Shown: positions 2,672-61,540, counted from the whole stretch's first letter. The stretch is DNA of 63,595 nt, filler included, from Chrysochromulina tobinii (GCA_001275005.1; 5 parts of 5 records of this genome joined end to end with filler, not necessarily neighbours in it), one strand, 5' to 3'. A program made the numbers and translations. Notes: generated from the sequence alone by a model not told the origin.

Positions 2672-5244
2672 CTACATTCCACCCCAGCCGAATCTCACAC
2701 GCCAGGCGGCCAGGTCCGAGAAGAGCCTCTCCCGCCACGAGCTCAGAAGGCGAGCGCGGTACGCATCAGCAAGCATCGACTGCCCAGTGAGCACCTTGCC
2801 GGCGGGCTGGCGGCCGATGGGTTGCCGAGCTGCGAGGCGTCGCAGTACCGTCGCGAGCGCGAGCGACTCTGTCGGCGTCCATCGGTCATTCTCCACAATC
2901 CACGCGATCGTGCCAGCACTGCTTCGGTCGTCGGCGCCGTCCTCCACGCCCGCTCGGAACGGCGCGCGACGCAAGCCGAGGAAGTCCATCATGAGGCGCA
3001 CGAGGCGTCGCATCATCTCATCTCCGCAATTGAGCAGCGCTGAGCGCTCGAGAACCCAGCCACACCGATCGTCGCGCCGGGACTGCACGGTCAGGAGGGC
3101 GGCCGCCCCCAACAGCACCGGTCCAACTGCCGGTTGAGCGCCCAACTCGGCGCTGAATCGTGCCAACTCGGCGCGCGCGAGAGAGAGGCTTGCGCACTCA
3201 TCGTGAGGTGAGTGCCCTCGTGGGAACAGCTGCGTGTCGAGCAGCCGATTGCGGCGCTCATCAGCGCCCGCGTGGTGGCGCTTCCGAGCCGCATTCTGCG
3301 CGGCGAGCATTGTTTCGAAGCCTCGTAGCGACTCATCGTGTGTTGATCGCCACGCAGAAGGTAGTGAGCGTGCGGTATTGGCACTGGCACCCGACGGCAG
3401 TGAGCGTGCGGTATTGGCACTGGCACCCGCATTGGCATCGTCTCTGGAAAAGGCGTGTGCGCCGGCACCCATGTTGGCAATGGCGCAAGCACCGCCCTGC
3501 ACACCAGTGGTGTCGATCCCGGAGCCAGCATCTACCGGTACCGGGCTGCCTCCCGTGCGTAGATCGGACCCCGGTTGCTCCGTGTCGGGGCTTGCGGCGC
3601 CACCCCGCAGCCGACGCCAGTTGGTTCCGCCGAATCTCTTGAGGACTAGTTCTGTGGGAAGTGCACACGAGCGGGCGCCTTCATCTGCCCAAGCAAGACG
3701 GCATCGCCACGCCGCCGCCGCCGCCTCCGCCACAGTAACGCCCCTCTCGGCCGCCCCAACCCCCTCGATGACCTCCTCGACGTGAGCCCTTACCTGATGA
3801 GGGGGGCAATCAGTCGTCATCAGAGTGAGGAGGGATGCAATTAGGAGGCAATCAGACGTCATCGGGGTGGCTCGTGGTGAGCCCTTACCCAACGGCGCCC
3901 GTGAGCGGCAGTGCGACATTGGAATTCGAGCAGCTCGCCGCGCGCGGGAGGAGCGCTGTCGGTGTCCGCACCGCGCTGCCCACCGCCGCTCAGCAGTGCG
4001 GTGATCACGGCGGTAGGCTCGTGAGCGGCGGCTACCCCAGCCGCCGCCACCGCCGCCATCTCGCCCGTCGCGCCTGCCGCCGCTGCCAGCGCCGTGGGCT
4101 TCAGGATGGAGAGCAGACAGCGCGGTGCACCGCCCGGTTTGCCGTGCACCGGCGCCTGAGCCACGAGGTCAAAGGCCGCTCTCAATCGCGCATCGTCGGT
4201 GAACGTCGCTGTGAACGCCTCTGTGGCGAGACATACAAAGGTGCTGGCGTGGGGCACTGAAGCGGCCAGCGCGCAGAGCAGATCGGTAAGGTAGCGAGCG
4301 TGCGGGATACGCTGCTCACGACCCCACGGCAGCGACGCCACCACCAAACCCACAGTCTTGGCCTGTTCGGTGGGCAGCGGCGTCGTGCAATCGTGCTCCA
4401 GCGCCGTCGGTACACTCGCAACCTCCCAACCAAACTCCTGTGCCGCAAATGCCAGGTTGGCACGGGCGCCACGCACAGCCAGAGGGTTGAGGTCGCACCC
4501 CACCGCCCTTAGCCCACGCAGCCGCGCCGCGCAGAGGACCGTGCCAGAGCCGCAGCAAGGGTCGAGCAGCACCGGTGGCAGCACGCCGGCGGCAGCGCTA
4601 GTAGTGGTGGTGGTGCGGCCAGTAGAGGCAGCGTGGTGCTGCAGCGCGAGCGAGACGGCGAGGAGCGCCAGCTCAGGGTCGGTCGCCGCCGAGAAGCTAT
4701 ACGGGCGGCTCGTCCACGTTGACAGCCGCCGCTGCTGCCGCTGCTGCTGCTGAGAGGCTGCCGAACCCACATTGCGGCAGAGGTACCAGAGCCGGCGCGT
4801 CCGCACGAGCACGAGCTCTAACGCGTTGTCCGTGTCACCACGCCGAGCCGCGGGCTCGCCGGGCAAGTATCGAGCCACGCCACACAGGCACTCGTGGGCG
4901 CGCGGACCAACGTCGTCTGCTGCAAACGACTCGTAGCGCAGCGTCCAGGGTTGCTCAAGCACAGCCGGCCGACTTGGCGAGTCGAGCTCTGCCAGTAGCT
5001 TGCCATACGAAGATGCGCGTGCTATCGGCTCGAGCACGTGCATAGCGCTCTCAGCAAGGACAAGGGCCTTGGAGCTACTCTGCTGATGCTTGGCGACATA
5101 CAATCGTGAACCGATGCGCGTTGCGTCGGGGCTCAGTTCCATGTGATGCAGGTCGCGATAGCGGCGAATTGGCGGCGTTATCACGAGCAGCGTTATCACT
5201 GGCGGAGCGAGCAGCAGCGTCGCCACATATCGAAGTCGCATCAA
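2672..5244 (-). CDS. SAM-dependent methyltransferase (TRM11/THUMP-type RNA methylase-like) with C-terminal domain of unknown function; 2 exons
   Basis: Motifs LLDPCCGSGTVL, GCDLN...GARANL and VASLPWGR. Exons 5244-3889 and 3793-2672 are joined in frame (RRW|VRAH) by GT-AG intron 3888-3794. Confidence 0.7.
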
Positions 5245-5578
5245 TAGGCAGCGTGCGCGAGCCTGTCAAGCCACACAAGGCTTGGACAAGGCCATGCTCT
5301 CGATCGTGAGCGTGAATTTTGCCGTGAAGCCCGATACGGCGCCTTTTCGAGTGCGAGAATGGTACACGTTTTATAACTCGAGCGACGAACACGTGCGGCG
5401 TGGCACCATCGCACCCCCATAGCTAGGTCAGCCGCGTGCTCGCGGCGGGCAGAGGAGGGCAGGAGGCGCCGCCTCTCAAGCTCTCATACAGCGGTAGGCC
5501 TACGGTAGCGAAGCGACCGTCGCGAATGGAGAGCTGCACGTGCCTGGGCGCGGCGCCATTCTCGGGTCGAGCCCTCCC

Positions 5579-6286
5579 TCAGAAGTACGGGAAGCCGATG
5601 GCGCCGTGGGTGATGGCGCTCTGCGTGGCGATGCCGCTGAAGGCCATCATGGCGAGACGCGAGTGCTTGATCTCGGCCTTTTTGATCGAGTCGGTGACCT
5701 GGATGTTGCCCGTCAGCGCAAAGTCGCCCGGCGCGCGCTTCCCCTCCAGCGTCTGCTGGATGGCCGCGAAGCCCGCGATCTCGCACACGCCGCAGAAGAT
5801 GAGCAGCACGATCATAGAACCCTGCTTGACTGCGGCGTCGTGGGCGGTGAACGAAGTCACCGACATCAGCGGCGAGTCGGCCGGCAGCCCCGGTGCGCGC
5901 AGGCCGATGTCCGCGGCGATCCAGCCGACAATCGCGAGCATGCACACGCGGCCGTGCTTCAGCTCAGCTTCCCGCATCCAACCGAGCGGGATTCCGGCCG
6001 ACGAGAGGCCGAGCGGGTCAAAGCCCACGTCGCCGGGCATCGAGCCTGTGATGCCAAGGCACAAAGCACACGGAGGGTGATGAGCGCATGCGTGCTACTC
6101 GTCGGGGCCAAGCTGTGTTGAAGTGCGTTTGAGGGCATTGTGAGGCTTCTCACCGTCGAGGGCTTTCGGGCGCTCCATGAATGGCAAGGATTCGGACTTG
6201 ACCATGGAGATGCTCGCGCGAGGAGTGACGCGGGCGGCAAGCGGCGCCGCGAAGGACATTGAGGCAGAGGAGGAGAGCGCGAGCAT
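5579..6286 (-). CDS. Chlorophyll a/c light-harvesting protein (Lhcr-like); 2 exons
   Basis: Exons 6286-6154 and 6045-5579, GT-AG intron 6153-6046. The spliced product has the leader MLALSSSASMSFAAP, then PKALDGSMPGDVGFDPLG, WMREAELKHGRVCMLA and AEIKHSRLAMMA. Confidence 0.93.
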
Positions 6287-19303: not shown

Positions 19304-22042
19304 TCACTCCCGGGGCTTTGGTCTGCCAAACACGACACGGATGATCCACTTGGCCGGGCGGAATCTTTTGGGCTTGTTGCTCCGCCCCTCGTGTCCCGAA
19401 GCGCTCGCGGCGCCCTGCTTTCGCCTCGAGAGCACCTCATCGAGTGTAAGCTTTGCTGGCGAGACGTAATCAGCAGGCGAGTCGAAGCTAGAGAAGCCTC
19501 CGGGCGATGGAGCCAAGCCACCCCCTCTGCTCAGCCTCGAGCGCGAGTCGGCGGTACTCAAGGGCGAGGGATTGACCGACCAGGCATCGTACGCATTCGG
19601 CACGGGGCTCGCGCCGAATCCGAACGTGCGACCCCGACCACTGAGCCGGCCACCGCTGCCGCCGCCGCCGCCGCTGCCGCTGTGGCCCATTGCGACGCCT
19701 CCGTGCCCTTCGCCGAGGCTGGCGACACTGCTGCCGCCCCGCGCCGCCTGTGGGGTAGCGCTGTACTGGTCGTCGTCGTGCTCCTCAGTCCGCAGAGCTG
19801 CGTCCTCGAGCGCCTTCTCGAGCTGTTGGATACGCTCGTGCGCGTGAGCGAGGGCCTTCTCGGCCGCCTTCGCAGCCTTCTCCGCTTGACGAGACTCGAC
19901 GCGCAGCCGCGAGTTGGTCTGCATCTTCTGGGCCTCGGCGGCACTCCACTCATCCTCTAGTGCGCTCACCTGCGGCAACCAGGCCGGCAAGTAAGGAGGC
20001 GATCAGACGCAATCGGACGCAATCAGACGTCCATCACGATCCTTCAGAGGGCAGGCAGGGACACTGAGCTCACCTGCACTGACGCCGTCGCGAGCGCCTC
20101 CTCCGCGTCGCTGAGCGTCGTGCTGAGCGCAACCGCGACCGAATATTGCTCGATCGCTGCCGTGGTGGGCGCATGCCGCTCATCACGACGCTCGAAGGCG
20201 GGCCCGTTCGCCGAGAGCGTCTGCTGTGCCTCCCTGAGCTTGCCTTGCACGCTCCTCAATGGGCGAGCGCTCAGGGTGGCCTCTGCGCGTTCACAGGTAG
20301 CCTCGAATTCACAGGTGGCCTCTGCGCTCGGCACCATTGCTTTGGGCTTCGGCTTCGGAAAGCCGGCCAACAGAACGGGCACCGCAGGCGGCGCCGGTGG
20401 GGCAGAGCGCAGCGTCGCCGCCTCCGGCAGCGTCGCCACCTCCTGCAGCGTCGCCGCCTCCGGCAGCGTCGCCACCTCCGCGTCCTCGAGCGCCTTCTCG
20501 AGCTGTTGGATACGCTCATGCGCGTGAGCGAGGGCCTTCTCGGCCGCCTTCGCCGCCTTCTCCGCTTGACGAGACTCGACGCGCAGCCGCGAGTTGGTCT
20601 GCATCTTCTGGGCCTCGGCGGCACTCCACTCATCCTCTAGTGCGCTCACCTGCGGCAACCAGGCCGGCAAGTAAGGAGGCGATCAGACGCAATCGGACGC
20701 AATCAGACGTCCATCACGATCCTTGAGAGGGCAGGCAGGGACACTGAGCTCACCTGCACTGACGCCGTCGCGAGCGCCTCCTCCGCGTCGCTGAGCGTCG
20801 TGCTGAGCGCCACCGCGACCGAGTACTGCTCGATCGCGAGGAGAGCTAAGCTCGTCTTGCCTGCACCCGTCGGAGCGCCTACGAGCGTCGTGCTGAGCGC
20901 CGTGCTGAGCGTCGTGCTGAGCGTCGTGCTGAGCGTCGTGCTGAGCGTCTTGCCTGCACCCGTCGGAGCGTCGACGAGCATCTTCTCATTCGAATCGAGC
21001 GCCACGCCCACGACGGCGCTCTGGAGCGCATGCTCAGGCAGATCGCTCATCTGGACCAGCCTCGGCTCGAGTCTCGTGGTTGGGGCGGGTGGCACCGGCA
21101 CCTCCTCCCACCCCTTTCCGGTGCGCTGTACAGTTCCCTCTGGGAGCGCCTTGCCCAATCCGCTGCTGGAGGCGAGACTACGCAGCTGCGCGAGCGCCGA
21201 GTCGGGCGCGAGCGGCTTCACCGCCTTCGCCGCCTTCGCCGCCTCCTCCTGACGAAGCCGTTTCGTCGCCGGTTCGAATCCGGCCGCGCTCAGCCACTCG
21301 AGCTCGGCCGCGATCTCGTCGGGAGATCGCGTCTCATCGAGCGCGGCGCGGCGCTTCTCCTTGGCAAGTTTCGTCGCGTCCGTGCGCCTCTGCTCCTCCT
21401 CGAGCTCCTGCTGCGACTTGCCTAATTTGGACGTGGTGGTCATGGCCATGCAACCAACGGGCGCTGTGTCGGGCGCTGCGGGGCCGCCGCCGGCACCTCC
21501 ACTGCCACCCAGCCCGCCGCTCGAGCTCCCGTCCGCATCCGCATGCTCAGCGGCGGCGAGCAGCCGCTCCAGATCGTCCTTCACACGCACCCGTGCGGGC
21601 AGCACCGTCGCAATCAGCTCCAGCGCGCCGAGGCCGAGCAGGCTGAGCAGGTCGCCCTGCAGTGCGTGACGAGTCGTGGTGGGCGCATGGGACCATCAGT
21701 TGGCCATCGGTGGCCATCAGTGGCAATCAGTGGCCATCGATGGCAAATCACCTGCAGTGCGTCATCCTCCGCCGTATTGGAGTAGAGTTGCCCGAGGAGC
21801 GTTGCACTGAGCATATCCACCTCTGCGTCGGTCGCCACGCCACCCCTTTCCGGATTCGCATACAGATGCATGCGGCAGCGCTCGCGTACCCAACCGATGG
21901 TCCCTTCTGGCGAAGCGCCGCCGCCAGCAGCACCGCCGCCGCCATTGCTACCCCCAATGCCGCTGCCGCTGCCGCCGCCGTCGGCTGTCGCCGCCGCGCT
22001 CGCCGCCGCCGCGCTCGCCGGCGGCCTTCTGAGAGACTGCAT
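19304..22042 (-). CDS. Chimeric gene: truncated ASCC3/Slh1/Brr2-like helicase N-terminus fused to a duplicated coiled-coil module; 4 exons
   Basis: Exons 22042-21752, 21656-20754, 20649-20074 and 19969-19304 are all phase 0 and open. LQ|GDLLSLLGLGALELIATVL, LPEGTVQRTGKGWEEVPVP, LVQMSDLP and SNEKMLVDAPTGAGKT match the lead-in and Walker A of ASCC3/Brr2. No DExH motif follows. Confidence 0.6.
19800..20837. repeat. ~358-bp direct duplication (19800-20157 and 20480-20837) including a 104-nt intron in each copy
   Basis: Near-identical segments at offset 680 with only scattered substitutions. Confidence 0.92.
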
Positions 22043-22164: not shown

Positions 22165-22206
<42 letters not shown>

Positions 22207-25456: not shown

Positions 25457-27432
25457 TCATTGCTGCTTGCACTCTGGGTCGCCCGGCTTGGGCCCACCGG
25501 GGGCAGCCGCCGCGCTGCCGCTCGGTTTGGCGGCACCGCCCTTGCCCTTGCCCTTGGCCGGGGGCGGCTCGTCGTCGTCGTCATCGTCGTCGTCCTCATC
25601 CTCGTCCTCGTCCTCGTCCTCGTCGTCGTCGTCGTCCTCATCCTCCTCATCATACTCGTCGTCGTCGTCATCGTACTCGTCCTCCGGGTCGACGGCTGCG
25701 CCGGTGAACCAGGCGACAGCGCGCGGAATGATCTTATCCTTGATCACGCACCCGAGCTCATAATCTGCCTCGAGGCTGTCATGGAGCTGGTCCATCTGCA
25801 GCACAGTACGCGAGCAGCGTAGGACGACGCAACCCACGAGCGTCAGGTGCGCGATGCGTCATGGCGCGGGCACTCAGCAGCTGAGCCAAGCCAGGGTGAA
25901 GACTGTGCTCCCTAAAAAGGATTGGCACCGGCGCCATGAGGCAATCAGAGGCAATCAGAGGCAATCAGAAGCAAATAGAGGACTGTGCTCCCTATGTAAG
26001 ATCGCCGCTGGCGCCACAGAGGTTTCCACCCCGAGGTGGAGCCTCGGCCCCAGCAGCCTGTGATGAGAGGCGGCTTGTGGCGCAGTTGCAAACCTCGATG
26101 ATCCTTGAAGGTCTCTCACCGAGGGTTCGTCTGCGCAAGGCGGGCCGGCCAGGCGAAGGCCAGGCGCTGTAGCGGGCGCCAGGCGCTGTGCCGGGCGGGC
26201 GGCGCTGCAGAAGGCGGCTAGGCGAGGTCAAGGGCAGTTCGGGCGGTGCATGCACGCACCTCCTCCTCATCCATCTCCTCATCCTCTCCGGGCATCGAAG
26301 GCGGCTGGAAGAACTGGAAGAACGAGTCAATCGGCTCCTCCTGCTTGACAGTGCGCACCTTGCCCTTCTTCTTCTGCTTCTTCTCGACCAGCTTGACCGT
26401 TGGGTTCTTGCCTGGCTTCCAGTCGATCTCGGTGCCGATCGACTTGGTGAGGCACTCGTCCTCGTCATCCGGGTCGAAGAGGTACGTCTTCGTGATCGTC
26501 GTGCCCTGGAAGTACTCGTTCGGCGAGAACAGGAAAGCGAGCTGAAAGCCCTTCTTACCCTGTCCTAGCTGGGCCGAGTACTTGATGTCGATCAGGTGCT
26601 TGAGGATGGGCTCGTCGTGCTCGTGGATCTCGTCCGCGGTGATCATGTTGTTCTCGAGGCACTTGAGCCAGAAGCCGGGCACGCCGCCGTCCTTGCTCGT
26701 CACTGTCTCGTACCGCTGCTTGTACAGCGGTGCCTTTTTCTTCTCGTACTCTTCCTTGAGCTGCTCGAGCTTCTCGAGGAACTCCTTGGACAGCGCGTCC
26801 ACCGAGTCCTGCAGCTGCTCGAGGCTCTCGACGCGCGTACGCACGTCCGCTGGCAGCTCAGCGATCGTCGCGTCGCGCCGCTCCGCGGACGACATGTTCA
26901 TCATCGCCAACTTCTTTTGCAGCTCGATCGGAAGCTCAGCCTTGCCGCCGCTGCGGGTCTTCGTCATCTTGCTCGTATCCACCTCGTCCTCGTCGTCGTC
27001 CGCGTCACCCATGCCGCCACCCGTCTGCGCGGCGAAGTTGAATTGGAACGAGCCGGTAGCCGGCGCGGATGGCGGCGGCTGTGCCGCTGCATTGAAGGTG
27101 AATGGCGACGGCTTGCCGCTGTCGGCGGGCGCCACAGGCGCCGCGGCGCTGAAGGAAAAGGTGCTGCCCTTGCCGTCGGCTCCCGCTGGCGGCGCAAAGC
27201 TGAACGCCGGTGCCGCGGGCTTGCTCGGCGCGGGCGAGTCATCACCAATGTGCTTCTTGTACATGTCGACCAGCTGCTCCTTGGTCACGCGCTTGACGAC
27301 AGAGGTGATGGCGCCGCCGATTTTGTTCTCGTTGACGAAGTCGTCGCCCGCTTTTTCCTGCAGGTACTGGATGAGCATCTTCTTCGAGACATCATCGCTC
27401 GCCGCCTGCGCGGCGGTCCAGGGCGCCGCCAT
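25457..27432 (-). CDS. NAP1: Nucleosome assembly protein 1 with N-terminal BTHB-like domain; 2 exons
   Basis: [60 protein letters not shown] and [15 protein letters not shown]; acidic tail; C-terminal CKQQ. Exons 27432-26260 and 25795-25457, intron 26259-25796. Confidence 0.93.
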
Positions 27433-33292: not shown

Positions 33293-35071
33293 CGGCGGCG
33301 GCGGCGGCAGCAGCGGCAGCAGCGGCCGCAGCGGCAGCAGCGGCAGCGGCAGCGGCAGCGGCAGCGGCAGTCCAGATGTGGGCCCCGATGGCGCGGACGG
33401 CGCTCGCGTTGAGAGAGGCTCTGACGCGACCTCGGACGCGCTGCCGTGGGCGCTCAACGGCCGCTGGACTTCAATTGAGCCGGTCTGGCTTGGTGCGATG
33501 CAGCTCGACTTGGACTCATCGGCAGCCACGCGAGCTGCAGTCCTGCGCGAGTGGGTAGCGTTTAGCCGTCGGCGGCTCGACCTCGGTGCGGCGCGCGCGT
33601 CGTCGTGTGCGGGCCGGGTCCTGCAACCTCGCTCGGCGCGCACGCAGACCTTCCTCGAGGTGAGCGAGGCGCGCGAGCAGATGCACAAGAACAAGTTTGT
33701 GGTCTCGGACGCGCTGTACATTGCACACGTGCTCGGGAGGGCGCTCGTAGAGCCGATGGTGTCCAACTCACGCCTTGGAGAGGAGCGACCCGAGCAGACG
33801 GTCCAGATTCGCGCCTCGTCGCGAATCGAAGACTTGCGAAGACCCGAGCAGACGGTCCAGATTCGCGCCTCGTCGCGAATCGAAGACTTGCGAAGACTTG
33901 CGGACGCGGACGCCACCAACGGTGCCGACGCTTCGAGGGACGGCAGCGGCGAGGCCGACGGCGGCGAGGGCGAGGGCGGCGGCGACGGCAGCAACGCCAA
34001 GCGTTCAGGCGAGGAGGCGTCGGAGGAGGAGGCGGAGGAGGCGGCTGCACAGGCACGTTGATTGCTACTGATGACCTGCCTTGCATGCAAGTGCTCACCA
34101 CAGCGCGTTCGGCTCTCGAGGCGGCTGCACAGGCGGGGGCCGCACGCGCCGCGAGCGCCACCAAGCAAGCGATCGCGGACGCGGACGCGGATGGCGCTCG
34201 CCGCTTCAGTAGGCTGATGCTTCGTCACTATTGGGACCTCGAGCCGTTGTGCGAGCGCTTCGATCTGGTGCCGCGCTCGATTCATCACAAGTACAAGCGG
34301 GGCGGGCACGTGGTGATTTCGCCGCGGGAGGCCAACCGCGGCATCGGGCTATGGCGACTGCACACTCGCCAGGCGGTGTTGCGAGCCTTCCGCCCCGTGC
34401 TGAGCAGCAAGACGATTGAGATTCGAGGCATGTGGCGCTCAGTCACGAACGCCGAGGCGCTGCGCATAGGGCATGCTCTGCCTTATCAGGGAGTGAGCCT
34501 GCGCCCCTCGACGTGGGAGCTCAACCCTGGCTATGAGCTCATCGCCGTGCAGCTCATCGCCGGCCTGATGGACCCGAGCGCTGGCGGCCGCTTCCTCGCC
34601 GTCCAATGGCGCTCTGAAGATTGGCACAAGCAGCTCCAAAAACGGGGCGAGGACCACACGAAGCCCGAGGCGCTGCATGCGTGTGCACGCTGGGCCGTGA
34701 GCCACATCAGTGACGAGATGCGCAAGCACGGCCTTGGTGAGGCGTATCTCGCAACTGATCTGCGCGGCGGTGCCTCGGGCACGTATGCCGTCGGAGTCGC
34801 GCAGGCGGAGGCGCTGCAGATACTCTACAAGGCGGTGCCGCGCATGAACAACCCTCGAATGCGCGCCTTCATTGATGCCATCCCGGACGCGGGCGTTCGC
34901 GCCAACGTGGAGACAGCCATCTGCCTCAAGGCCACCGTGCTGCTCGCGACGACTGGCCAGTGCAAGGACTGCGAGCATGCGCGCCGCTGTGCCAAGATGT
35001 CCTCCGCGTTTGGCCACTACATCGTCGAGCGGCGCCAGGCATTCATGCGGCCGACGAGTCCACTCTTCTGA
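31923..35071 (+). CDS. Cys-rich-repeat protein with C-terminal O-fucosyltransferase-like (GT-B) domain; 2 exons, GC-AG intron
   Basis: Exons 31923-34052 and 34133-35071 are in frame. LGRALVEP, FLAVQWRSE, YLATD, VETAICLKA and SSAF...I match POFUT-type motifs. N-terminal PAN-like CC..C...C unit and repeated A..N.L...C...C.[FY]...GW.Y....C units. Confidence 0.65.
33787..33894 (+). repeat. Exact 54-nt in-frame tandem duplication (RPEQTVQIRASSRIEDLR x2)
   Basis: 33787-33840 equals 33841-33894. Confidence 0.9.
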
Positions 35072-48486: not shown

Positions 48487-48589
48487 TTATTGCAGATGGG
48501 TGGGATGCATGCTACTTGTGATTCTTGCAGATGGGTGGGGTGCATGCGACTCGTGATTATTGCAGATGGGTGGGGTGCATGCGACTCGT
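48459..48589 (+). repeat. ~35-nt tandem repeat copying the last codons and stop of the upstream ORF (about 4 copies)
   Basis: CAGATGGGTGGGGTGCATGCGACTCGTGATTATTG repeated with variants. Confidence 0.85.
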
Positions 48590-49473: not shown

Positions 49474-50766
49474 TCAGCCCGTCAGGGCCGATTTGTGCCA
49501 GAAGGCCATGGGATCAATGGTGTGGAAAGGGGGAGAGCCTCGCTGGTGAGAAGACCACATGGGGGAAGTGATATTCATGTTGCGGCGGTACGTCAGGATG
49601 GCTGCGCGCGACTGCAAGAACTTCCAATCATCGAAGACGATGTAACCACCGACTGTGAGAGGCGTGAGAGGCGGGTATACATGTAGAGGGCGCGTCACCC
49701 ATTTCAGGAGGTAGGGTTGTTAGTTAGGGTGAGCACAGGGTGGGCATTAGGGTGAGCATGCACCCACCTGAGAGGCGAGGGTAGAGGGCGTCAAGCGTCT
49801 CATAGATCGACACGAACATATCCGAGTCCGCGCGGATGAGTGCGAACGAGCTGCCCGGTGGTATCGTGTGGAGCGTCTCGTTGAAGAAGCCAGGCAGGAA
49901 CCTGACCTGACGAAGCACGTCACCCTCTGCGCCCTTCTCCTCGAAGCCTCCGTGCACTTTCCCGCCCTCTGGCGTACCTGCGGAAGGAGAGGGGCGCGCG
50001 CCGTGGTGGGCACTTGCATGCACGGCCCTTTTGTGTTGCTCTTCCCACAGCTCTCTGTCGTACCCATGGCTGGGAACGGCTGGTGAGTTGGGCTGCTGAG
50101 GCACGTCGACATGCGCTTCTTCACAGCGTCGAGGGGGCTGGCAAACTTGCCAGGTGTCCAATCGCGTGCCCCCGCGTACTCAAACTTGGCGGCTCGGGCG
50201 ATGCTCTCCATGTTGGTGCCTGCCCTGTTACCGCCGTCGCGCTCTGCGAACTGTCGGATGTATGCTTTCGAGGGCGGCAGGCCTCCGAAACTATCAGCGA
50301 GCCACATCTGACGAACCCGCTCGCGTGGTGCGTGGGCCGTGGCGCCCCGAAGCGTGTAGAATGCATGCAGCAGGGCCTCCATGTGCACCGAAATACCGCC
50401 CTTGTAGACCCCAGCTTCGATGAAGTCGCCTGCGATGCCGTTGTGCAGCACGTCCCAAGCAAGAGGCTCCAGCATCGTGGCACGGCGCCAGCAGTCCCAC
50501 TGGCATGCGGCTTCAGGGTCGCCTCTGTTGCTGGTCGGGAACGCTTTCGCACGGCCTATGACGCACGCCTTCGACGCATTGAGGAAGGCAAGCTGCTCTT
50601 CCGTCCACTGCTGCTGCTGGGCAAGGCGAGAAAGCTCTGAAACCTCCTCTGCGGACTGGCTCGCCAGCGGGTCATACATTGGAAGATGCGCCTTGATGCG
50701 TTGGTCAGGCGTGACTGACTTGCACACCAGGATAACTGCATGCATGTGCAGCACGTGCAGCCGCAT
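49474..50766 (-). CDS. TylF/MycF (macrocin O-methyltransferase) family protein; 3 exons
   Basis: GIAGDFIEAGVYKGG, WLADSFGGLP, VRFLPGFFNETL, ALIRADSDMFVS and LYPRLS|VGGYIVFDDW. Exons 50766-50064, 49977-49768 and 49652-49474 total 364 codons. Confidence 0.9.
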
Positions 50767-51623: not shown

Positions 51624-51779
51624 TTAGGATGGTTAGAGCAGCTCGAGCTCGCGATCTCCCCATTAGGATGGTTAGAGCAGCTCGAGCTCGCGATCTCCCC
51701 ATTAGGATGGTTAGAGCAGCTCGAGCTCGCGATCTCCCCATTAGGATGGTTAGAGCAGCTCGAGCTCGCGATCTCCCCA
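51624..51779. repeat. 39-nt exact tandem repeat x4 spanning the DGAT-like gene stop codon
   Basis: TTAGGATGGTTAGAGCAGCTCGAGCTCGCGATCTCCCCA at 51624, 51663, 51702 and 51741. Confidence 0.93.
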
Positions 51780-53495
51780 ACCAAATGCGACCTTTTGGGA
51801 GTCAAACGTGGCCACCATCTCGTCGCACAGCTTTGCATGCAGCGCGTCAATCTCGGCGTCGCTCGGGCATTTGCACGCCTCGCCTACCTCGATCGGCCGG
51901 CCGAGGACCACGGTGATCGCCGCCCGGCGCGGCACGGGAGGCAGCCCGGGGCCAAACCGCCCATACGGGAGAATGAGCGAGATTTTGAGCGTGCGCGAGA
52001 TCCATTCGCCAGCCGTGCCGAGCAGGTTGCGCAGGGGGCGTCGGGACACGAAGAACCAGCAGGGCACCAGCGGGACGCCGTGCGCCTTGGCCAGCTTCGT
52101 CAATCCCTTGCGCTTCCGAATGATGACGGCGGGAGAGGCATGGGATCGCGCCGCGTCCGTGAAGATGCCTGCAATGCCGTCGATGGCCACTCCGGTCGGG
52201 TACCTGATGCGGGATGCAATCAGAGGTCATCAGCATGCAATCAGCATGCAATGCCGTCGATGGCCACTCCGGTCGGGTACCTGATGCGGGATGCAATCAG
52301 AGGTCATCAGAGGCCACCAGAGGCCATCAAAGGTTATCCGAGGTTATTCAGAGGTTATTCAGAGGTCATCAGGGGCCATCAGAGGTTATCAGGGGCCATC
52401 AGAGGTCATCAGCGCACCCATTCGAGAGCAGTGTCGAGAGGACGTCGCGATCGGCAGGCACACACCCAATGCCATAGAAGATCTGGGAGGCGAGATTGGG
52501 GCGAGATTGGGGGGATTGGTGAGTCACCACAGACGCGGGACTGACGAAGCGCGATCGGCTAGACTTCTATATTAGGGACGGCGAGTCACCTGGCGCCAGA
52601 TTGGGAGGCGAGTCACTACCGACGCGACGCCCGCCCGCCCATGGCAGCGCGAGGTCAAGTAGGGCGAGAGCTGCCACAGGAGCCCGCCGATCGGGAAGAG
52701 CGAATGCGGTGCGCACACGTGGATGTACCTGAGGGACGGAGGCGGCGCCGTGCTGAGCACTTGCATGCCAGGCAGGTCATCAGTGGCAATCCACACACAG
52801 CTGAACGGCGCTGTGCTGAGCACTTGCATGCCAGGCAGGTCATCAGTGGCAATCCACACGTACGGTCGATCGGCGACGAACTTGTTCTCCGGGGCGAAGA
52901 CGACCCGGAACGAGAAGTAGCGGTACATCGCGCGCAGCACGAAGTTGTGCTTCAGGCCGGCGCGGGGGGCGGGCGCCCAGATCGTGAGCGCCGCGACGAG
53001 CGCCAGCGCCAGCGAGGGGAAGTAGACCCACCCGACCACGGCCCAGGAAAGCAGGGCGAGGAACACCGCGACCGGTGCAAAGGCCGGCCCTGAAAAGAAG
53101 AGGGCAAGGGCCACAATGCACACGAGCTCCTCCCACCAACCCATCGGTGCCTCGGTGGCCAGCGCGCCTGGCTCGAAGGCTCCGTCGGCGGCTTTGCGCG
53201 CGATCCCGGCCACCAGCGCGGCGTGGCTCTCCTCAGAGATGGCGGGATCACCAACTTCGGCCGGAAGTCGCCACATCTCCAGCACGGAGCACTCGGACGG
53301 GAGCCGAGCGATGAAGTCATCTGGACGTTTCCAAGTATTGCGAACGCGAAGCCCATCGGCGGAGAAGTTGGACAGGGAATTGTAGGAAGCGTCCCTCGAC
53401 AGAGGACTCGTTGGTGGGGTCTGCAGATCGCGCAGCTCGTCGGAAGTGGTCGGAGTCGTTTCGACGTTCAGCGTGTTGCGCCCGCCGCTGCCCAT
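51750..53495 (-). CDS. Diacylglycerol/monoacylglycerol acyltransferase (DGAT2/MGAT family); 4 exons
   Basis: RYFSFRVV, YIHVCAPHSLFPIG, ASVVTRLPIWRQ, DGIAGIF, RKGLTKLAKAHGVPLVP, VVLGRPI and IDALHAK. Exons 53495-52864, 52728-52590, 52482-52418 and 52203-51750 total 430 codons. Confidence 0.88.
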
Positions 53496-53972: not shown

Positions 53973-56900
53973 ATGTCGGACGACCTTGCTTTGCCGTCCG
54001 CCCGCGCGCTGGCAACGTCGCTGCTCTCGGCGGCCTTCGCGGCCGAGGGCGGCCCGCCGAGCCAGCTCTCCGAGGAGGACTTTCTTGCGGCCGAGGCCTC
54101 GGTCATCGAATGCCCGCCGTCCCCGCTCGAGTGCTGCCTTCGCGTGCACCGCCGGTGCGTCTTCGACGCGGTCAACGAGGCGCTCGACGAGCTCTCTCAG
54201 CCGCCGCCAACGCCGCGCGGGCTGTCGCTCGCCACACGCTCCGCCAACGGCGCGAAGCCCGCCTCCCGGTCGAGCAGCATCGCCTCGCTCCTGGCGGCCG
54301 CACACGAGCAGCGCATCTCGACGCTCGACTGCGAGGCGTGGACGCAGCGCGTGCTCGCGTTGATGCCCGAGCCGTCGGCGCCGCCGGTGGGGCTCGCGGT
54401 GGTACCGGACGACATCGGCGCCACCACACGGCGCGTGTGGAAGCAGCTCCTGCCCGAGTGGAGCGACTTTGGCGAGGACGAGATGGCTCTCGCCCGCTCT
54501 GAGGTTCGCTCGGATGAGAGTGCTTGATGACCTCTGATGGCCTCTGATGACCTCTGATGACGAGATGGCGCTCGCCCGCTCTGAGATTCGCTCGGATGAG
54601 AGTGCTTGATGACCTCTGATGACCTCTGATGACGTATGATTGCCTCCCTCATCAGGTGCGCTCGGCTGAGAGTGCGGCGGAGCTGCGCGAGCTGCGCGCG
54701 AAGCGCGCGGCGGAGTTGTTTTGGGAGGGGCGCGAGGCGCTCTTGCTCTCCGACGACGAGCTGCATGGCGTGCTCTGGGATGCGCTGTGTCAGTACGTGT
54801 CCCCTCCGTGGCCGGCCGAGGGGCTTGGCGACTCGGATAGCGACCCCCACGGCGAGGTGGGACGCAAGCTGCCGAAGCCGAAGCCGAAGCCGAAGAAGAA
54901 GAAGAAGAAGGAGGAGGAGGACGACGAGGGGCAGGGCGAGGAGGAGGGCGAGGAGGAGGAGGAGGAGGAGGAGCCCGAGGAGGAGGAGGTCGTCGGGGCG
55001 CGCGATCGGCATGCGCGCATCCATTACGAAGACTACCTGCTGGTATGCTGATGGCCCTGATGGCATCTTCAGTCAAGACCTGCCTGATGACGTGCCTGAT
55101 GACGTGCCTGATGACGTGCCTGATGACGTGCCTGATGGCGTCTGAGGACATGCCTGGTGACCTCCCTGATCGCCTCTCATCGCGTGCGCTCCTCTCGCCT
55201 CTCTGCTGCAGGCGCTGAGTGAGCTCGATCGTCGCAAGGTGGCACCACTGCGATCGGCGCGCCTCTTCCTCTCCCTGCGACTAGACGCGTATGGTCGCGC
55301 ATCCATCCGGTCGCTCTACGCGCTCGCGTGCTCGCTCACGCAGCTACTGACGACCCGCATTCAGCTCGCGATGCTCGAGGATGGGCACGGCCGCCTGTCG
55401 GAGCAGGTATGCCCTTTCGCTCTAGATGGACACTTGATGGACACTTGATGGACTCTTGATGGACTCTTGATGGACTCTTGATGGACTCTTGATGGACTCT
55501 TGATGGACTCTTGATGGACTCTTGATGGACTCTTGATGGACTCTTGATGGACTCTTGATGGACTCTTGATGGACTCTTGATGGACTCTTGATGGACTCTT
55601 GATGGACTCTTGATGGACTCTTGATGGACTCTTGATGGACTCTTGATGGACTCTTGATGGACTCTGCCGGCACATAATCACATTCACACTCGGTCTCTGC
55701 TCACTCGTGCCCTTTTCACACTTGCCATTTTAGGCGCTCGAGACGTTCGTCTCCGAGTCGATCCCGAGGCTCGCCCGGCTGCGTGACCACGTGCACCTGC
55801 AGCAAGGCCACTCCTTTCTGCCCTTCTACGTCGCCCATTGCGTGCGCAAGTTCTGCCTGCTGCTCGAGCCGAAGGACAAGCGTGGGGTCCCTTCCGAGAC
55901 ACTTCTGATCTCGGCGGAGCTCGCCCAGCTATGCGCGCTCGGCGAGGAGTTGCCCGATACGGCAGCTGGCCTGCGGCGCGACAGCCACTCCAGCGAGGAC
56001 ACGCCGCCCCCGAGCAGCTTGGGTGATACGCCGCCCCCGATTTGGTTCTCCCTCCCGTGCCGCCGTGGGTGTGCCGCCGCATGCATGTGCTCACCACGAC
56101 GCCCTCGCCTCCCCACAGGTGATGAGTCGAATTGGTTCTCCCTGGCCTCGGCCATCCGCGTGTACCGCCACTTCCTCGAGCTCGACACGGACCACGACGG
56201 GATGCTCACGCCGGACGAGCTCGCTTCGTATGGCGATGGACTGCTCTCGCTCACACCGGCCTTTGTGAGTAGTGGCCCCTGATCGCGCCCCTGATCGCGC
56301 CCCTGATCTCGCCCCTTTTGAGTGTGGCACTGCCCCTGATGGCCCCTGATGGCCCTTCTCATCAGGTCCCTGATTGTCCCTCTCATCAGGTCCCTGATTG
56401 TCCCTCTCATCAATTCCCCGATTGTCCCTCTCATCAGGTCCCTGATTGTCCCTCTCATCAATTCCCCGATTGTCCCTCTCATCAGGTCGGTCGCCTCTTC
56501 GAAGCCGTCCACACATACGACGGCAAGCTCGACTACAAGGGGTACCTCGACTTCGTCATCGCGCATGAGCACCGCTCCCACCCGGCGGCGCTCGCCTACT
56601 TTTTCCGCTCGCTCGACTTGCATGCGTCGGGCAAGCTCGGCGTCTTCGAGGTCAACTACTTCGTGCGCGACATTGTGCAGGGCCTGATCGACTCGGGAGA
56701 CGAGCCGCCCGGCCTTGGCACGATCGTGGATGAGGTCTTCGATCTCGTCAAGGGGAGATCGCACAAGTCGCGGGGCGCGGGCGCGCTCGAGCGCGGGCGC
56801 GTCGTCTCGGGCGCGATGCCAACGCTCTCGCTCACGGAGTTTGTGCGCTGCGGCGCGGGCTCGATCGTGATGCAGATGCTGATCGACGTGCAGGGGTTCT

Positions 56901-57910
56901 GGAATTGGGACAATCGAGAGTCCTTGATTGAGTACGATGACGACGACCGATACGCGAAGGACGAGCTCGAGGCGGCTCGACGCACCACGATCCTGTTCAG
57001 CCACGCGGCGCACCGGCGCTCCGCGCCCTCGATTGCGGCGCTGCAGGGAGATTCGCCCGAGATGTCGCCGCTGCATGAAGAGCGGCGGTTGCGCGCGGCG
57101 CGCACCATCACCACACTGCTGCTGCGCGTCCAGCGGCTCGACCACTCTCAACGCAACCCGACGCCCGCCGTCAGCCAGGTGTGCCCCCTAATGACCTCTA
57201 ATGACCTCTGATGACCTCTGATGACCTCTGATGACCTCTGATGACCTCTGATGACCTCTGATGACCTCTAATGACCTCTGATGACATCTAATCGCCTCCC
57301 TCATCAGGTGTGCCCCCTGGCGCCGGCGACCAAGCAGCCACCGTACAAGCCTCCGCCCAAGCCGTCGGGCGCGCCCCCGCCGCCGCCGACGACCCTGGCG
57401 GGCTGGAAAAAGTCCGCAGAGCAGCTCGACGAGCCCGCGTCGCCTGTGGGGTCCGACGTGACACCGCCTGGCGCCGTGTATCCTCCCGACGGCCATTTCC
57501 CGCCCGATTACTTTGTCATCCCGCCGTTACCGGCCGACGTCGAAGTCATCTACCCGACGCTTCCACAGGCGCCGCCGCCCAAGACGGCGCCCGCGCCCGC
57601 GCCGGCGCCCGCCACGGCGCTTCCGCCGCCCCTGCCGCCGCCGCCGCCGCCCGTGATGCTGCCTGACTCGCCCCCGAGCATGCCGCCCGACTCGGCGCTC
57701 AGCTCGAACAATCCCCCCCTCTCCGAGAGCACCAAGGAGAAGCCCGAGTCGTCCCGCAGAGCCGCGCCGGAAGGAGCCCGCGCCGTCCCGGGCGGAGGCG
57801 AGCGACGAGGCAGCCTCCCCCGAGGCGCCGGCGCGAGCGTTCACAGCCGGCGCGAGCGTTCACAGCCCCGAGGCGCCGGCGCGAGCGCCTTTGCCGCCGC
57901 CGCCTGCTGA
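53973..57910 (+). CDS. PPP2R3C: PP2A regulatory subunit B'' gamma (PPP2R3C/TON2-like) with N- and C-terminal extensions; 7 exons
   Basis: SFLPFYVAHCVRKF, NWFSLASAIRVYRHFLELDTDHDGML, TYDGKLDYKGYLDFV, PAALAYFF, DEVFDLVK and MLIDVQGFWNWDNRE. Exons 53973-54503, 54656-55042, 55212-55406, 55734-56022, 56119-56264, 56486-57178 and 57308-57910 are in frame (948 codons). Confidence 0.88.
55425..55665 (+). repeat. Intronic 11-nt minisatellite (GATGGACTCTT)n, about 22 copies
   Basis: Directly visible inside intron 55407-55733. Confidence 0.93.
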
Positions 57911-57935
57911 GCCGGCGCCATTGGCGCCGCCGCCG

Positions 57936-57969
<34 letters not shown>

Positions 57970-57970
57970 C

Positions 57971-59564: not shown

Positions 59565-59961
59565 CGCGCCCGGTTTCCGGGTTCGTCCGGCGGTTAGCGA
59601 GTACATGTACGTCAAGGATCTAACTAACGTTAGTCATTACGACGAGAACAATCCGGACCGACCGACGCGTTCGGTCTAAGAGACTAAGACGTAGCGCTAG
59701 AACGCTCCGGACAATCATGATCGCGGGCGGCGTGACCGTCCGGCCTGAGAGATGTGAGATCTCCGTGTGTGAGCTGTGACGATGTGTCGTCGTGTGCCTG
59801 TGCGACGCCGACAGCATGGCTTTGGGGGGCGAAGACGAAGTACGAAGAGCCGCTTCGTAAGCACGATGGACAAGACCACGATACGATCGATAGGCCCCAG
59901 AGGGTCGTACGGTTCGTGGATCGTTCGATCCGCGATCACAAGATGTTGACCCTCGCCCATT

Positions 59962-61540
59962 CTATGCCACTGCATCCAAAAGCAGCCGGTTGAGCAACAT
60001 CATACTTCCACTGCACGGCTGCCAGTGTGTGCAGTCGAGCCGCGGCGTCGCGCGACTAGCGCTGGCGTCCACGCCGCCGCCGCTACCACCGCGTCGGCTC
60101 GTCCATCCCGGGTGGTCCACCCGCAATCAGATGCAATCAGATGCAATCAAATGCAATCACCTGAGTAGTGACGGGAGGTGGTCCATGTGGCGATGCACGA
60201 GAGGCCAAAAGGCGGGAAGCGTCTCGACCACACGTGCGCCGCGCATGCACGACTCTCCCTGTGAAGGGACCTGCTGTGAAGAGCCCTGCCGTGAAGAGCC
60301 CTGCTGTGAAGAGCCCCGCGCCTCCCGCGCGCCCGCGGCGGCGCTGGTGGCGGCTCCCTCGACCATTTCCATCGCGGGGCGAGCCACTCGTGCATGCAAG
60401 CGCCGCGCCTCATGCACAGAGAGTGGCATGCATCCGGCGCTCGCGTTTGCGTGACGGGCGGCGCGCGGCGGGCGGCCTGGGAAGGCTCCACCGCCGGCGT
60501 AGTGCTGCGGCAGGTGCTCACGCCAGAGGACACGTGGCCAGTGGGTGCGGCGACATGCAAGCGCGATGAGTGAGCGCACTCCGGTGGAGAGTAAGTCGAG
60601 CGCCGTGTCGAGCGCCGTGTCGAGCGCCTCGTGAGCTCGAATCTCCGCTGCCGCTGGTTCGGCGAGGGGGCTGCGCTCGGGACGACGCGAGATGCTCGCC
60701 ACGGCGCCGTGGCCGCCGTGCTCGGCCTCGGCACTGCGATCGGCAGCGTTCGGACCCCCTAACCTCGCGAGAGGGCCGTACCTGTGGGGAAATGACGCCG
60801 TGGTGAGCACTTGCATGCAGCGCCCCGAGCCTCGCCAGAGGCCCGTACCAGAGCCCCACGTTGAGCACAACGGTGCCGTCTCGGCCAACGGGTGCGAAGA
60901 GCGGATCGAGCACCCGGGCGAGCGCGGCCTCACTCGGCGGGAGCAAGTTGAGCCGGCGCACCATCAAGGTCAGCGCGGGTGCACCCCGTGCCTCGCAGTC
61001 CATCTCGGCGCCTTCGTATCGGTTCACGTAAAGGAGCTCAGGCAGCCGATCACGCAGCCGACCGCCTCGCCTCGCCGTCCGTGACGTCTGAGCCAGTGAG
61101 GTCTCTGGCCGGTGAATCCCCGTGCACTGCATGGTACGCCCGGCGCGTCGGAGCCAGGCGAGCAGCGCGTCGAATTGGAACTTCATCAGCGAATCGCCGA
61201 TGAGCATGAGCCGCCCTCGTAGGCGCCTTACGCTGTGGCGTGCCACGCTACAATTGTCGGGCACAAAGTGAGCGGGCGTACCTCGATGCTGGTCGATGCA
61301 AGGCTCCTTGTGATGCCAACCGGCAGCTGGCTTTCGGTACCAACGGCCCTGCAACGGCCGAGGTTGGAGCCGGCAGAGTGGCAGCGCCTTGGTCTCCTCG
61401 AGGCAGGACGTGCAAGCAGCGCACCGGCACCATTGGCCACAATGGCTAGGTAAGCACCAGGACTCGCACGCGGCCGGTGCGGTGTCGCGGCGCTTGCGTG
61501 GCACGCACGTCGAGCGCGTGTGAACGCTCGAGGGCTCCAT
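59962..61540 (-). CDS. SGNH/PC-esterase (trichome-birefringence-like) polysaccharide O-acetyl-modifying protein; 3 exons
   Basis: FVPDNC, LMLIGDSL, VVLNVGLW|Y, LWREHLPQHY and LDCTHW (DxxH). Introns are 60848-60782 and one from 60160 to an acceptor at 60083 or 60062 (both keep frame). Confidence 0.75.

Follow-up and report, generated by a model that had tools for sequence, protein, structure and literature searches.

Intron gain by repair of staggered double-strand breaks has been described in Daphnia pulex, in which direct repeats are left at opposite ends of the new intron (PMC4202315; PMC3443670), and the source of most new introns is stated there to be unknown (PMC4202315). In the freshwater haptophyte Chrysochromulina tobinii, introns that start or end with a duplicate of their own exon junction are confirmed here as a genuine observation. 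These introns show a same-strand target duplication of ~10–34 nt with a shared filler between the two copies, and splicing removes one copy together with the filler. The sample is a single window, that is, the whole stretch of 63,595 nucleotides that was analysed, made of five records of the genome joined end to end, with 21 intron models.

Polymerase theta-mediated end joining produces templated insertions, patchworks of short flank copies and small tandem duplications, and the copying of remote splice modules is not its usual outcome. In another haptophyte, Emiliania huxleyi, the 2013 genome paper reportedly found 10–11-nt tandem repeats enriched in introns, and the C. tobinii introns are similarly filled with repeats of ~10–11-nt period. 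We know of no link made in that paper between intron repeats and junction duplications or intron gain.

Results

Junction repeats are long, variable in length and above chance

Nine segments had been proposed in an earlier note to be introns flanked by copies of their exon junction (Table 1). All nine have GT(GC)...AG ends at the coordinates listed, and the quoted repeats were found in each. Five of these repeats are exact at the junction and three are decayed, while that of 49653–49767 is weaker than claimed, with 3 nt exact only; its CGCCTCTCA copy sits 2 nt inside the intron and adjoins a 10-nt copy of the upstream exon. Among all 21 models, five carry an exact junction repeat of at least 10 nt (10–17 nt) and eight an exact or decayed one of 10–27 nt, the segmental duplicate of the 19970–20073 intron being counted once with its original. 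The share of 'roughly half' put forward earlier therefore amounts to 8/21 at the junction itself, and to 13/21 if internal same-strand flank copies of at least 10 nt are added.

The earlier note had also suggested a comparison with shuffled donor/acceptor pairs, and in this control, run on the 21 introns of the window, the junction repeats exceed the shuffled pairs. An exact repeat of at least 9 nt occurs in 0 of 420 shuffled pairs (maximum 8, mean 3.3), a mismatch-tolerant score of at least 9 is reached by 8/21 introns versus 2/420 shuffled pairs, and the observed mean repeat was reached by none of 100,000 permutations.

The duplication length is variable, with exact values of 10, 12, 13, 14 and 17 nt, decayed ones from 12 to ~27 nt and 34 nt in the DGAT2 unit. 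Variable-length target duplication is a non-LTR or SINE-type trait; direct repeats at opposite intron ends beyond chance, a Daphnia-type staggered-break trait, are also present. The 21 introns show no fixed target-site duplication length of the kind seen in DNA-transposon introners, no terminal inverted repeats (TIRs; inverted matches between the two 30-nt ends reach 6 nt at most in 21/21) and no poly(A) or A/T tails, A/T runs never exceeding 5 nt. The duplicate supplies the donor in six cases, both splice sites in 34053 and the acceptor in 21751, and in four cases the duplication takes in the G but not the A of the acceptor AG.

Table 1. Introns of the window, with junction repeats, filler modules (A, B) and RNA joints; X8 is a DNA run, X12–X16 are RNA runs
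Position	Strand	Length (nt)	Feature	Characteristics
3794..3888	-	95	Intron, RNA methyltransferase-like gene	13-nt exact junction repeat; filler A with CTCATCAG at its end; supported by frame and sequence
19970..20073	-	104	Intron	10-nt exact junction repeat; degenerate filler A; supported by frame and sequence
20650..20753	-		Segmental-duplicate copy of 19970–20073 intron	1 difference; not an independent event
21657..21751	-	95	Intron	Ends with upstream exon-end copy, 12-nt exact; filler A repeats and degenerate B; T of GT donor contributed by filler
25796..26259	-	464	NAP1 intron	Internal filler A x3.7; no junction repeat
34053..34132	+	80	GC-AG intron	17-nt exact repeat gives both splice sites; A+B filler, of which ~59 nt align with DGAT2 intron 1
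49653..49767	-	115	TylF intron 2	Junction repeat 3 nt exact; CCCTAA-like repeats; 9–10-nt upstream-exon copies inside 3' part, off the junction
49978..50063	-	86	TylF intron 1	Decayed junction repeat 11/12 (10/11 + G); filler B
52204..52417	-	214	DGAT2 intron 3	Filler A; 77-nt unit = 34-nt copy of next exon start + acceptor-end copy, one extra unit in loci L002/L003; RNA skip of 214 in X14, X16
52483..52589	-	107	DGAT2 intron 2	10–11-nt patches from both flanks; RNA skip of 107 in X12, X14, X13
52729..52863	-	135	DGAT2 intron 1	Filler A+B x2 tandem; 4-nt junction repeat; RNA skip of 135 in 4/4 runs
54504..54655	+	152	PPP2R3C-like intron 1	Decayed 20-nt junction repeat (18/20 + AG); filler A; later 82-nt duplication across donor (54477–54640), second donor reads AT; RNA skip of 152 in X13, X16
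55043..55211	+	169	PPP2R3C-like intron 2	12-nt-period filler; no junction repeat; RNA skip of 169 in X12, X16
55407..55733	+	327	PPP2R3C-like intron 3	11-nt array x22; no junction repeat; RNA loose ends at 55732 bear upstream exon end
56023..56118	+	96	PPP2R3C-like intron 4	Filler B; 5' part a patchwork of 13 nt upstream exon and 5+12 nt downstream exon; X14 contig pieces 55732–56021 then 56118–56264
56265..56485	+	221	PPP2R3C-like intron 5	24-nt acceptor unit in six copies; filler A; RNA skip of 221 in X12, X14, X16
57179..57307	+	129	PPP2R3C-like intron 6	14-nt exact junction repeat; 10-nt filler unit x9.9 ending CTCATCAG; RNA skip of 129 (14 ambiguous letters) in X12, X14, X16, absent from X8
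60098..60160	-	63	Additional modelled intron, not among the nine named	Filler A x3.7 and 9-nt upstream-exon patch; excision lengthens frame to 484 aa
60782..60848	-	67	Intron	Decayed junction repeat 22/26 + G; filler B

A modular filler is shared by introns of unrelated genes

Between the repeat copies lies a filler of 10–12-nt TGAT-core repeats and/or the module GCATGCAAGTGCTCACCAC. The two filler modules are common to unrelated genes and each of the eight repeat-bearing introns carries one; junction repeats occur in 8/15 filler introns versus 0/6 filler-free introns, and the remaining 7/15 filler introns have none. The stereotyped filler of the earlier note is thus upheld as homologous sequence common to introns of unrelated genes and contigs. 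Local alignment scores reach 86 for the OFuc/DGAT2-1 pair and 127 for PP6 (57179–57307) and DG3 (52204–52417), against a shuffle maximum of 28, and 29 intron pairs score at least 36, a count that includes some pairs within one gene and scores inflated by tandem repeats. The similarity is local and modular, the fillers being mosaic and differing at both ends. Introns similar from end to end at unrelated loci are absent among the 21, and the best unrelated-gene pair aligns over ~59 nt of 80 and 135. A near-identical 20-nt acceptor module ends five introns, nested truncations of an A+B master are seen among the fillers, and a fixed head with a 10-nt repeat tail fits five introns if read antisense, but not the others. 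Filler ends in non-AG sequence before the repeat in two introns (34053, 21751).

All 18 filler hits lie within introns on the sense strand; none is intergenic or antisense, and the window includes at least 8 kb outside long frames. Seventeen fall in introns modelled before the scan, and the eighteenth prompted the 60098–60160 model. The filler is abundant in the C. tobinii genome: in DNA run X8, 2,276 contigs match a 2.25-kb stretch, mostly at filler, a figure that is not a copy number.

Copying from the immediate surroundings is also evident. Same-strand sharing of at least 10 nt with their own flanks is found for 10/21 introns, versus 10/420 with foreign flanks, and reverse-strand sharing of that length for 0/21. 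Filler-free perfect tandem duplications of 14–54 nt are common outside introns (33787–33897, 47452–47571, 51624–51779), and secondary duplications inside introns comprise the 77-, 82- and 24-nt units of Table 1.

Splicing and RNA support

Spliceosomal U2-type ends (GT/GC...AG) are present in 21/21 introns, and excising each named segment, as well as the duplicate at 20650–20753, gives back a long reading frame. RNA contigs support 9/21 introns, the other 12 models being without RNA support. The RNA comparison took in four of the nine introns named earlier, and splicing is corroborated for two of them, 54504–54655 and 57179–57307; the other seven supported introns are additional ones. For the two TylF introns no RNA joint is found among the best 15 of 27 matches listed for their stretch. 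DNA run X8 is continuous into 57179–57307 from both sides, and three RNA runs skip this intron. Filler joints at which RNA contigs 'go back' also occur in DNA run X8 and are therefore not intron circles. The beginning of intron 56265 is present in one wild RNA contig. Alleles lacking an intron were not encountered among the DNA runs and loci L002–L004, which are essentially one genotype.

Intron positions in relatives

The orthologue comparison uses the protein reading frames of relatives that are distant (0.8–1.1 substitutions per site), and covers one of the nine named introns, PPP2R3C-like intron 1 (54504–54655). It is absent from the reading frames of six relatives, as the intron gain proposed earlier would have it, and these frames, which read through its position, are broken at introns of their own. 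The positions of introns 4 and 5 of the same gene are read through in 4–5 relatives with their own intron breaks, and P0025, P0024 and P0023 (the first with a contig of up to 54,390 nt) read through all three DGAT2 intron positions. The frame of relative P0046 breaks at the identical position to PPP2R3C-like intron 2 (55043–55211), and a relative's frame breaks one codon upstream of intron 3 (55407–55733). Neither of these two introns has a junction repeat, and since each lies at or close to a break in a relative, growth of filler is possible in older introns as well.

The earlier intron-gain interpretation is partly supported by these data. Its terms 'recent' and 'high-rate' are not borne out, the relatives being so distant and no allele lacking an intron having been seen, and nor is a dedicated intron-generating 'system'. 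The alternative raised with it, templated copying in old introns, retains some force for the filler but not for the junction repeat of 54504–54655: both 82-nt units carry the same mismatch to the exon, and because the duplication thus preserved an already-diverged junction copy, this repeat decays and is not refreshed.

Discussion

We give about an even chance to the view that introns with repeat and filler were gained in the C. tobinii lineage through error-prone repair of breaks and bear the scars of that birth. A gene would suffer a staggered break, or a pair of nicks, and fill-in synthesis would duplicate the target. The broken end would prime on local flanks, giving patchworks, and also on other introns, which are the most plentiful source of branch-point-and-acceptor sequence, giving filler. 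Insertions would persist only if a GT/GC, a branch point and an AG happened to enclose just one copy of the repeat, and the intronic copy would then decay. The same process may re-duplicate junctions and expand arrays in new and old introns alike, and every new intron would add to the donor pool, so that filler could spread without a transposase of its own. Pol theta-like end joining or synthesis-dependent annealing is our guess for the enzymology, made from established repair signatures.

Break repair is supported because the repeats exceed shuffles and filler is present in all eight repeat introns; because repeat length varies in the absence of TIRs or A/T tails; because local same-strand templating is joined by filler-free tandem duplications outside introns; because 54504 points to a one-time birth followed by decay; because relatives read through several of the positions, which are thus lineage-specific; because the filler is homologous across unrelated genes and contigs and abundant in the genome; and because Daphnia provides a precedent (PMC4202315; PMC3443670). 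Counting against it are the seven filler introns without a junction repeat, the two array introns at or near relatives' breaks, the wild RNA contig with the start of intron 56265, the lack of an intron-less allele among those seen, and the acceptor module of five introns, as would fit a template whose end is defined. It also needs extra gene and strand targeting, because random repair plus selection predicts neutral intergenic or antisense copies, none of which occurs in the window. A bolder form, which we consider rather unlikely, is a transposon-free, self-feeding intron factory, in which introns already present would supply their branch-point/acceptor ends, perhaps in the form of excised RNA, to be copied sense-only into staggered breaks of transcribed genes with duplication of ~10–35 nt of target, and by which much of the intron complement would have been, and would still be, made.

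The main rival leads to the same gain by other machinery, an RNA-templated, retroposon-like introner in which target-primed reverse transcription at a nick would copy in a short RNA; we regard it as possible, if doubtful. The RNA might be the branch-point-to-AG end of an excised intron or, read antisense, a tiny SINE-like element that has a fixed head and a tandem-repeat tail. Variable target duplications, one-end truncation and reiterated repeats are its predictions, and the variable 10–34-nt duplications without TIRs, the 3' module common to five introns, the nested truncations of an A+B master and the exclusively sense, intronic filler hits agree with it; non-LTR-derived introners are known and make up ~5% of classified families (PMC12130899). 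However, the fillers are mosaics in which both ends differ, non-AG sequence precedes the repeat in 34053 and 21751, no RNA is required for the patchworks drawn from both flanks or for tandem duplications free of filler, poly(A) is lacking, the 'goes back' joints are not intron circles, and the window holds neither an autonomous element nor any intergenic or antisense filler hit. It is distinctly improbable that old introns were instead remodelled, a tendency to local tandem duplication throughout the genome having copied the ends of exons into those of introns, and minisatellites of filler having spread between existing introns by conversion. This would account for the intron-only filler, and fits the plain secondary duplications across junctions (52204–52417, 54477–54640, 56265–56485), the matched or nearly matched positions of 55043 and 55407 and the internal filler of the long NAP1 intron. 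Yet several relatives read through the positions of PPP2R3C-like introns 1, 4 and 5 and DGAT2 introns 1–3, both matched positions belong to introns without junction repeats, the repeat in 54504 was not refreshed, and copying at an old donor usually yields the old donor plus a new cryptic site, as at 54477–54640, rather than a clean repeat-filler-repeat.

Decayed conventional DNA-transposon introners, with a fixed short target duplication and often TIRs, the longer repeats being later or due to chance, are very improbable. Introners with 4-nt duplications and no TIRs exist in marine Chrysochromulina MAGs (PMC9860276) and several C. tobinii introns have 3–4-nt junction repeats, but such repeats equal the shuffled expectation (mean 3.3), no end-to-end family is present, and C. 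tobinii, although among the screened genomes, is in no other supplement row among those listed (PMC9860276). For the eight long-repeat introns this reading is contradicted by repeats of varied length (10–17 nt where exact) and the absence of TIRs. An assembly or modelling artefact is scarcely credible. The assembly is fragmented, with at least one error (a surplus C at 57762) and, at 52215, a unit that is collapsed or variable, and 12 of the 21 models are without RNA joints; the independently assembled loci L002–L004 nevertheless retain the fourth-contig introns, L002 spanning all of them, and the RNA skips of 57179–57307 stand against DNA continuity in X8, so that an artefact is refuted for the fourth contig.

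In C. tobinii, a cultured alga whose genome and RNA data are public, scar and traceable shared source come together at about one-third of the window's introns. Mass intron gain via a non-transposon or unusual-retroposon route thereby becomes testable genome-wide and in populations, and such introns would escape introner screens based on end-to-end intron similarity.

Comparison with known systems

Templated insertions by polymerase theta resemble the C. tobinii introns in their same-strand patchworks from both flanks (56023–56118, 49653–49767, 52483–52589) and small tandem duplications, but inverted patches are found in 0/21 of the latter. Tandem duplication of an AGGT proto-splice site likewise provides the donor from one copy and marks the acceptor with the other, leaving the mRNA unchanged (PMC3443670), whereas the C. 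tobinii intron body is mostly foreign filler rather than duplicated exon. In Symbiodinium, Polarella glacialis and the marine Chrysochromulina MAGs, introners also take splice sites from the target duplication (donor, acceptor or both) and are strongly biased towards genes; they have a characteristic 3–8-nt duplication, end-to-end similar copies and often TIRs (bioRxiv 10.1101/2020.10.14.339549; PMC9860276), whereas in C. tobinii the lengths are 10–34 nt, TIRs are absent, and the fillers are modular, tandem and mixed with local patchwork. The C. tobinii introns are not a standard introner, and are like Daphnia break-repair introns but with a shared filler. Opposite-end direct repeats, secondary internal duplications and decay with age are common to both (PMC4202315). 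Daphnia inserts are AT-rich and come for the most part from sources that are unknown and unrelated (PMC4202315), whereas the C. tobinii filler is common to many introns, and its repeats of at least 10 nt occur in 8/21 of all introns, not only in polymorphic ones.

Junction repeats and their controls

The repeat-bearing introns considered here share a layout of repeat, filler and repeat. Twenty-two introns were modelled by reading-frame restoration, of which 21 are counted (the segmental duplicate 20650-20753 is left out), and all counts refer to this one window, which is composed of five spacer-separated contigs. Exact junction repeats of at least 10 nt occur in 5 of 21 introns, whereas among 420 shuffled donor/acceptor pairs none reaches 9 nt, and a mismatch-tolerant junction score of at least 9 is reached by 8 of 21 introns versus 2 of 420 shuffled pairs. 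The observed mean repeat score is reached by none of 100,000 permutations. The repeats claimed in the earlier note thus exceed their shuffled control, and they are present as claimed in eight of its nine named segments; in the ninth (49767-49653), however, the copy is offset and does not span the junction. At least 10 nt are held in common with an intron's own 50-nt flanks in 10 of 21 introns (foreign flanks, 10 of 420; reverse strand, 0 of 21). With junction repeats and internal flank copies combined, 13 of 21 introns carry a local copy of some kind, and local templating is general.

Coordinates of introns, duplications and neighbouring features in the window
Feature	Coordinates	Strand	Observation
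PPP2R3C-like intron PP1	54504-54655		Named segment
PP2	55043-55211		
PP3	55407-55733		
PP4	56023-56118		
PP5	56265-56485		
PP6	57179-57307		Named segment
DGAT2 intron 1	52729-52863	-	135 nt
DGAT2 intron 2	52483-52589	-	107 nt
DGAT2 intron 3	52204-52417	-	214 nt
Tandem duplications, perfect or near-perfect	33787-33897, 47452-47571, 48458-48590, 51624-51779, 18849-18936		23-54 nt; exons and non-coding DNA
TylF intron 2 repeats	49700-49765	-	CCCTAA/CTAAC, telomere-like, doubling as branch-point-like pentamers; possible third filler type
Gene with DEAD/DEAH helicase-like start	19140-22042	-	Pfam DEAD fragments; duplicated Walker A region, 12-nt array, ~360-nt duplicated block containing an intron; apparently a scrambled helicase paralogue
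End of third contig	41600-42939		Fragments with internal duplication, by eye presumably transposase-like
Stretch of fourth contig	43040-48490		AT-richer, intron-free; frames taken by eye to be subtilisin-like, transporter-like and oxidoreductase/methyltransferase-like
Extra C	57762		Absent from metagenome locus L002, DNA run X8 and RNA run X12; probable assembly error
Poly-C run	57936-57968		GCC repeats in L002; probable assembly error

Splicing and assembly support

RNA contigs support splicing of at least 9 of 21 introns, including at least two of the nine named in the earlier note. PP1 is skipped in at least two of four runs and PP6 in three of three RNA runs, with 14 ambiguous letters and no skip in the DNA run X8. 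The three DGAT2 introns, PP2 and PP5 are also skipped, and PP3 and PP4 have backing from contig pieces or loose ends. The TylF region is neutral either way, being thinly covered by RNA and showing no joint in the matches listed; runs X18-X21 were left out of the comparison, as almost none of the search words occur in them. A metagenome scan with the DGAT2 alignment returned three loci only, each of the window's genotype, and the introns of the fourth contig are kept in independently assembled loci. The feature is real, RNA-supported and statistically strong.

The probable errors at 57762 and 57936-57968 truncate the C-terminus of the PPP2R3C-like protein. In the window, DGAT2 exon 1 (53150-53270, minus strand) encodes in frame ~37 residues that all homologues have and the named protein record P0010 lacks; because RNA contigs read through this stretch, the extra intron of P0010 looks like a mis-annotation.

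Filler and intron anatomy

Filler is found in 15 of 21 introns, including all eight repeat-bearing ones, and repeats occur in none of the six filler-free introns. Filler A is a TGAT-core array with a period of 10-12 nt, and in five introns it ends in a near-identical 20-nt acceptor module; filler B consists of GCATGCAAGTGCTCACCAC followed by a pyrimidine tract. Intron 34053-34132 and DGAT2 intron 1 each carry A fused to B, with ~59 nt alignable between them (score 86 versus a shuffle maximum of 28). Both fillers contain the pentamers CTGAT, CTAAT and CTCAC, which we take, by established consensus, to be branch-point-like and thus putative branch sites. All 18 array or module matches in the window lie on the sense strand inside introns (shuffles give 0.2); 17 of these fell in introns already modelled, and the 18th prompted the model 60098-60160. 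The duplicate supplies the donor in six introns, both splice sites in 34053-34132, and the acceptor plus one G in 21751-21657. Neither terminal inverted repeats nor poly(A) were found in the 21 modelled introns.

The rest of the genome is rich in filler too: a 2.25-kb stretch was matched by 2,276 X8 contigs, mostly at filler, a figure that is not a copy number. The wild RNA run X16 has loose ends at 57190 and 57227 with ~20 nt in common, ending in AG and flanking a filler; with both ends presumably on one contig, they probably represent a same-type intron of another gene. Intron circles were considered and rejected, as the 'goes back' filler joints of RNA contigs are found in X8 too. Scanning viral contigs for filler motifs yielded 1, 0, 1, 1 and 39 stretches, of which those of L007 and L008 were judged on full sequence and the remainder by GC content and motif count. 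The end of L008, a phage-like IMG/VR contig (4400-4554; also in L001), combines a terminal short tandem repeat, filler B and an AG/GT junction, and probably represents a chimera with haptophyte intron DNA. The other viral stretches look like chance phage matches. A GTDB scan gave two matches in bacterial MAG records, neither sharing more than 100 nt with the window, and these were discarded.

Local duplications and patchworks

PP4 begins with patches of both neighbouring exons. DGAT2 intron 3 holds a 77-nt unit (52204-52280, minus strand), of which the metagenome loci L002 and L003 contain one more than the window; because this unit is itself a GT...AG repeat-filler-repeat, two-step, recursive-like removal of the 214-nt intron through an internal AG/GT would be possible. 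An 82-nt duplication (54477-54640) spans a donor, and both its units share one mismatch to the exon, which implies that the junction copy diverged first, without later refreshing. Exons and non-coding DNA contain perfect tandem duplications of 14-54 nt that are free of filler, and the C. tobinii genome looks unusually rich in small tandem duplications.

Intron positions in relatives

Proteins of unannotated source are treated as probable single-frame calls, because several of them continue into a frameshift or into intron-like text. PP1 is read through by P0173, P0125, P0046, P0049/P0182, P0008 and P0066/P0193, all with a break elsewhere; PP4 by P0039, P0040/P0183, P0056 and P0115/P0134; and PP5 by P0040/P0183, P0056, P0115/P0134 and P0008. 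All three DGAT2 intron positions are read through without a break in the homologues P0025 (contig of up to 54,390 nt), P0024 and P0023. The intron gain proposed in the earlier note would agree with the proteins at PP1, PP4, PP5 and DGAT2 1-3, but the frame of P0046 breaks at PP2 and those of P0049/P0182/P0040 one codon upstream of PP3, which speaks against a pure-gain view. The introns at PP2 and PP3 are without junction repeats, and PP6 lies in a non-alignable region. Relatives' frames also break at several places that are intron-free in C. tobinii, indicating that PPP2R3C intron positions are very labile.

The full-length PPP2R3C homologues P0002, P0003 and P0004 were excluded as evidence of intron absence for a possible transcript origin, suspected because the P0003 sequence recurs in P0057, whose record is chimeric and has an acceptor-like beginning; the DGAT2 homologues P0011, P0014, P0015 and P0017 (contigs below 2 kb) were excluded for the same possible origin. 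A 'shorter' homologue search, limited to proteins of 30-34 aa, gave no match. Since the relatives' distance is 0.8-1.1 substitutions per site, gain is bounded no closer than the lineage, and any recency would rest on five repeats being exact. A wild RNA contig contains the beginning of PPP2R3C intron 5, so this intron is older than the divergence of that population.

A 694-nt X16 contig from wild RNA matches 56051-56159, which takes in PPP2R3C exon 5 and the 3' half of intron 4, and the wild allele may have a differing or longer 5' part. The frame of P0125 runs at its C-terminus into PLM-type text, which suggests that a TGAT filler intron is present elsewhere in this gene. At RRRGS in P0056/P0075, intron-like text starts VLPHDVL and the next exon VPLLDLL, a possible decayed junction repeat in another lineage, as read from protein.

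Origin of the introns

Gain with target duplication, by break repair or by an RNA-templated or retroposon route, is the probable origin. Break repair, in which the target would be duplicated and the filler copied from other introns, is favoured at roughly an even chance because one process would account for the variable lengths, the patchworks, the duplications free of filler and the decay. Its weak point is that intergenic or antisense filler is absent from the window. That same absence, together with the acceptor end common to several introns, is in favour of the RNA-templated or retroposon route, which we consider a tentative second candidate.

Remodelling of old introns certainly occurs as a secondary process; as the origin it fits the orthologue data more poorly than either route of gain and appears rather improbable. 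A DNA introner with fixed duplication is quite unlikely: these introns lack the fixed duplication length, terminal inverted repeats and end-to-end similarity of standard introners. An assembly or modelling artefact is the least likely of all and scarcely credible, as the three metagenome loci of window genotype count against it, while being uninformative on presence/absence.

Comparison with known systems

The final DGAT2 exon of the window matches a protein named Chrysochromulina tobinii at 100% identity. C. tobinii is a freshwater haptophyte whose genome paper, in the part available, mentions introns solely as about one per gene (PMC4580454). Introners of marine Chrysochromulina MAGs have 4-nt duplications in the corresponding portion of PMC9860276; C. 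tobinii is among the genomes screened there and absent from all other supplement rows among those listed. The main text of the 2025 follow-up, as far as available, leaves the genus Chrysochromulina unmentioned (PMC12130899). By titles and abstract starts, no paper was found that describes haptophyte introns with junction repeats or with these fillers; subscription papers and supplements may differ. Excised intron RNA has been proposed as repair filler, in the available section of PMC8469720 for introns without duplications. On the excerpts available, the C. tobinii introns work like staggered-break intron gain in Daphnia (PMC4202315, PMC3443670) and resemble the introners of Polarella and Symbiodinium in splice-site recruitment (10.1101/2020.10.14.339549). 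They represent a variant on known modes of intron gain and are unusual in that both scar and source can be seen.
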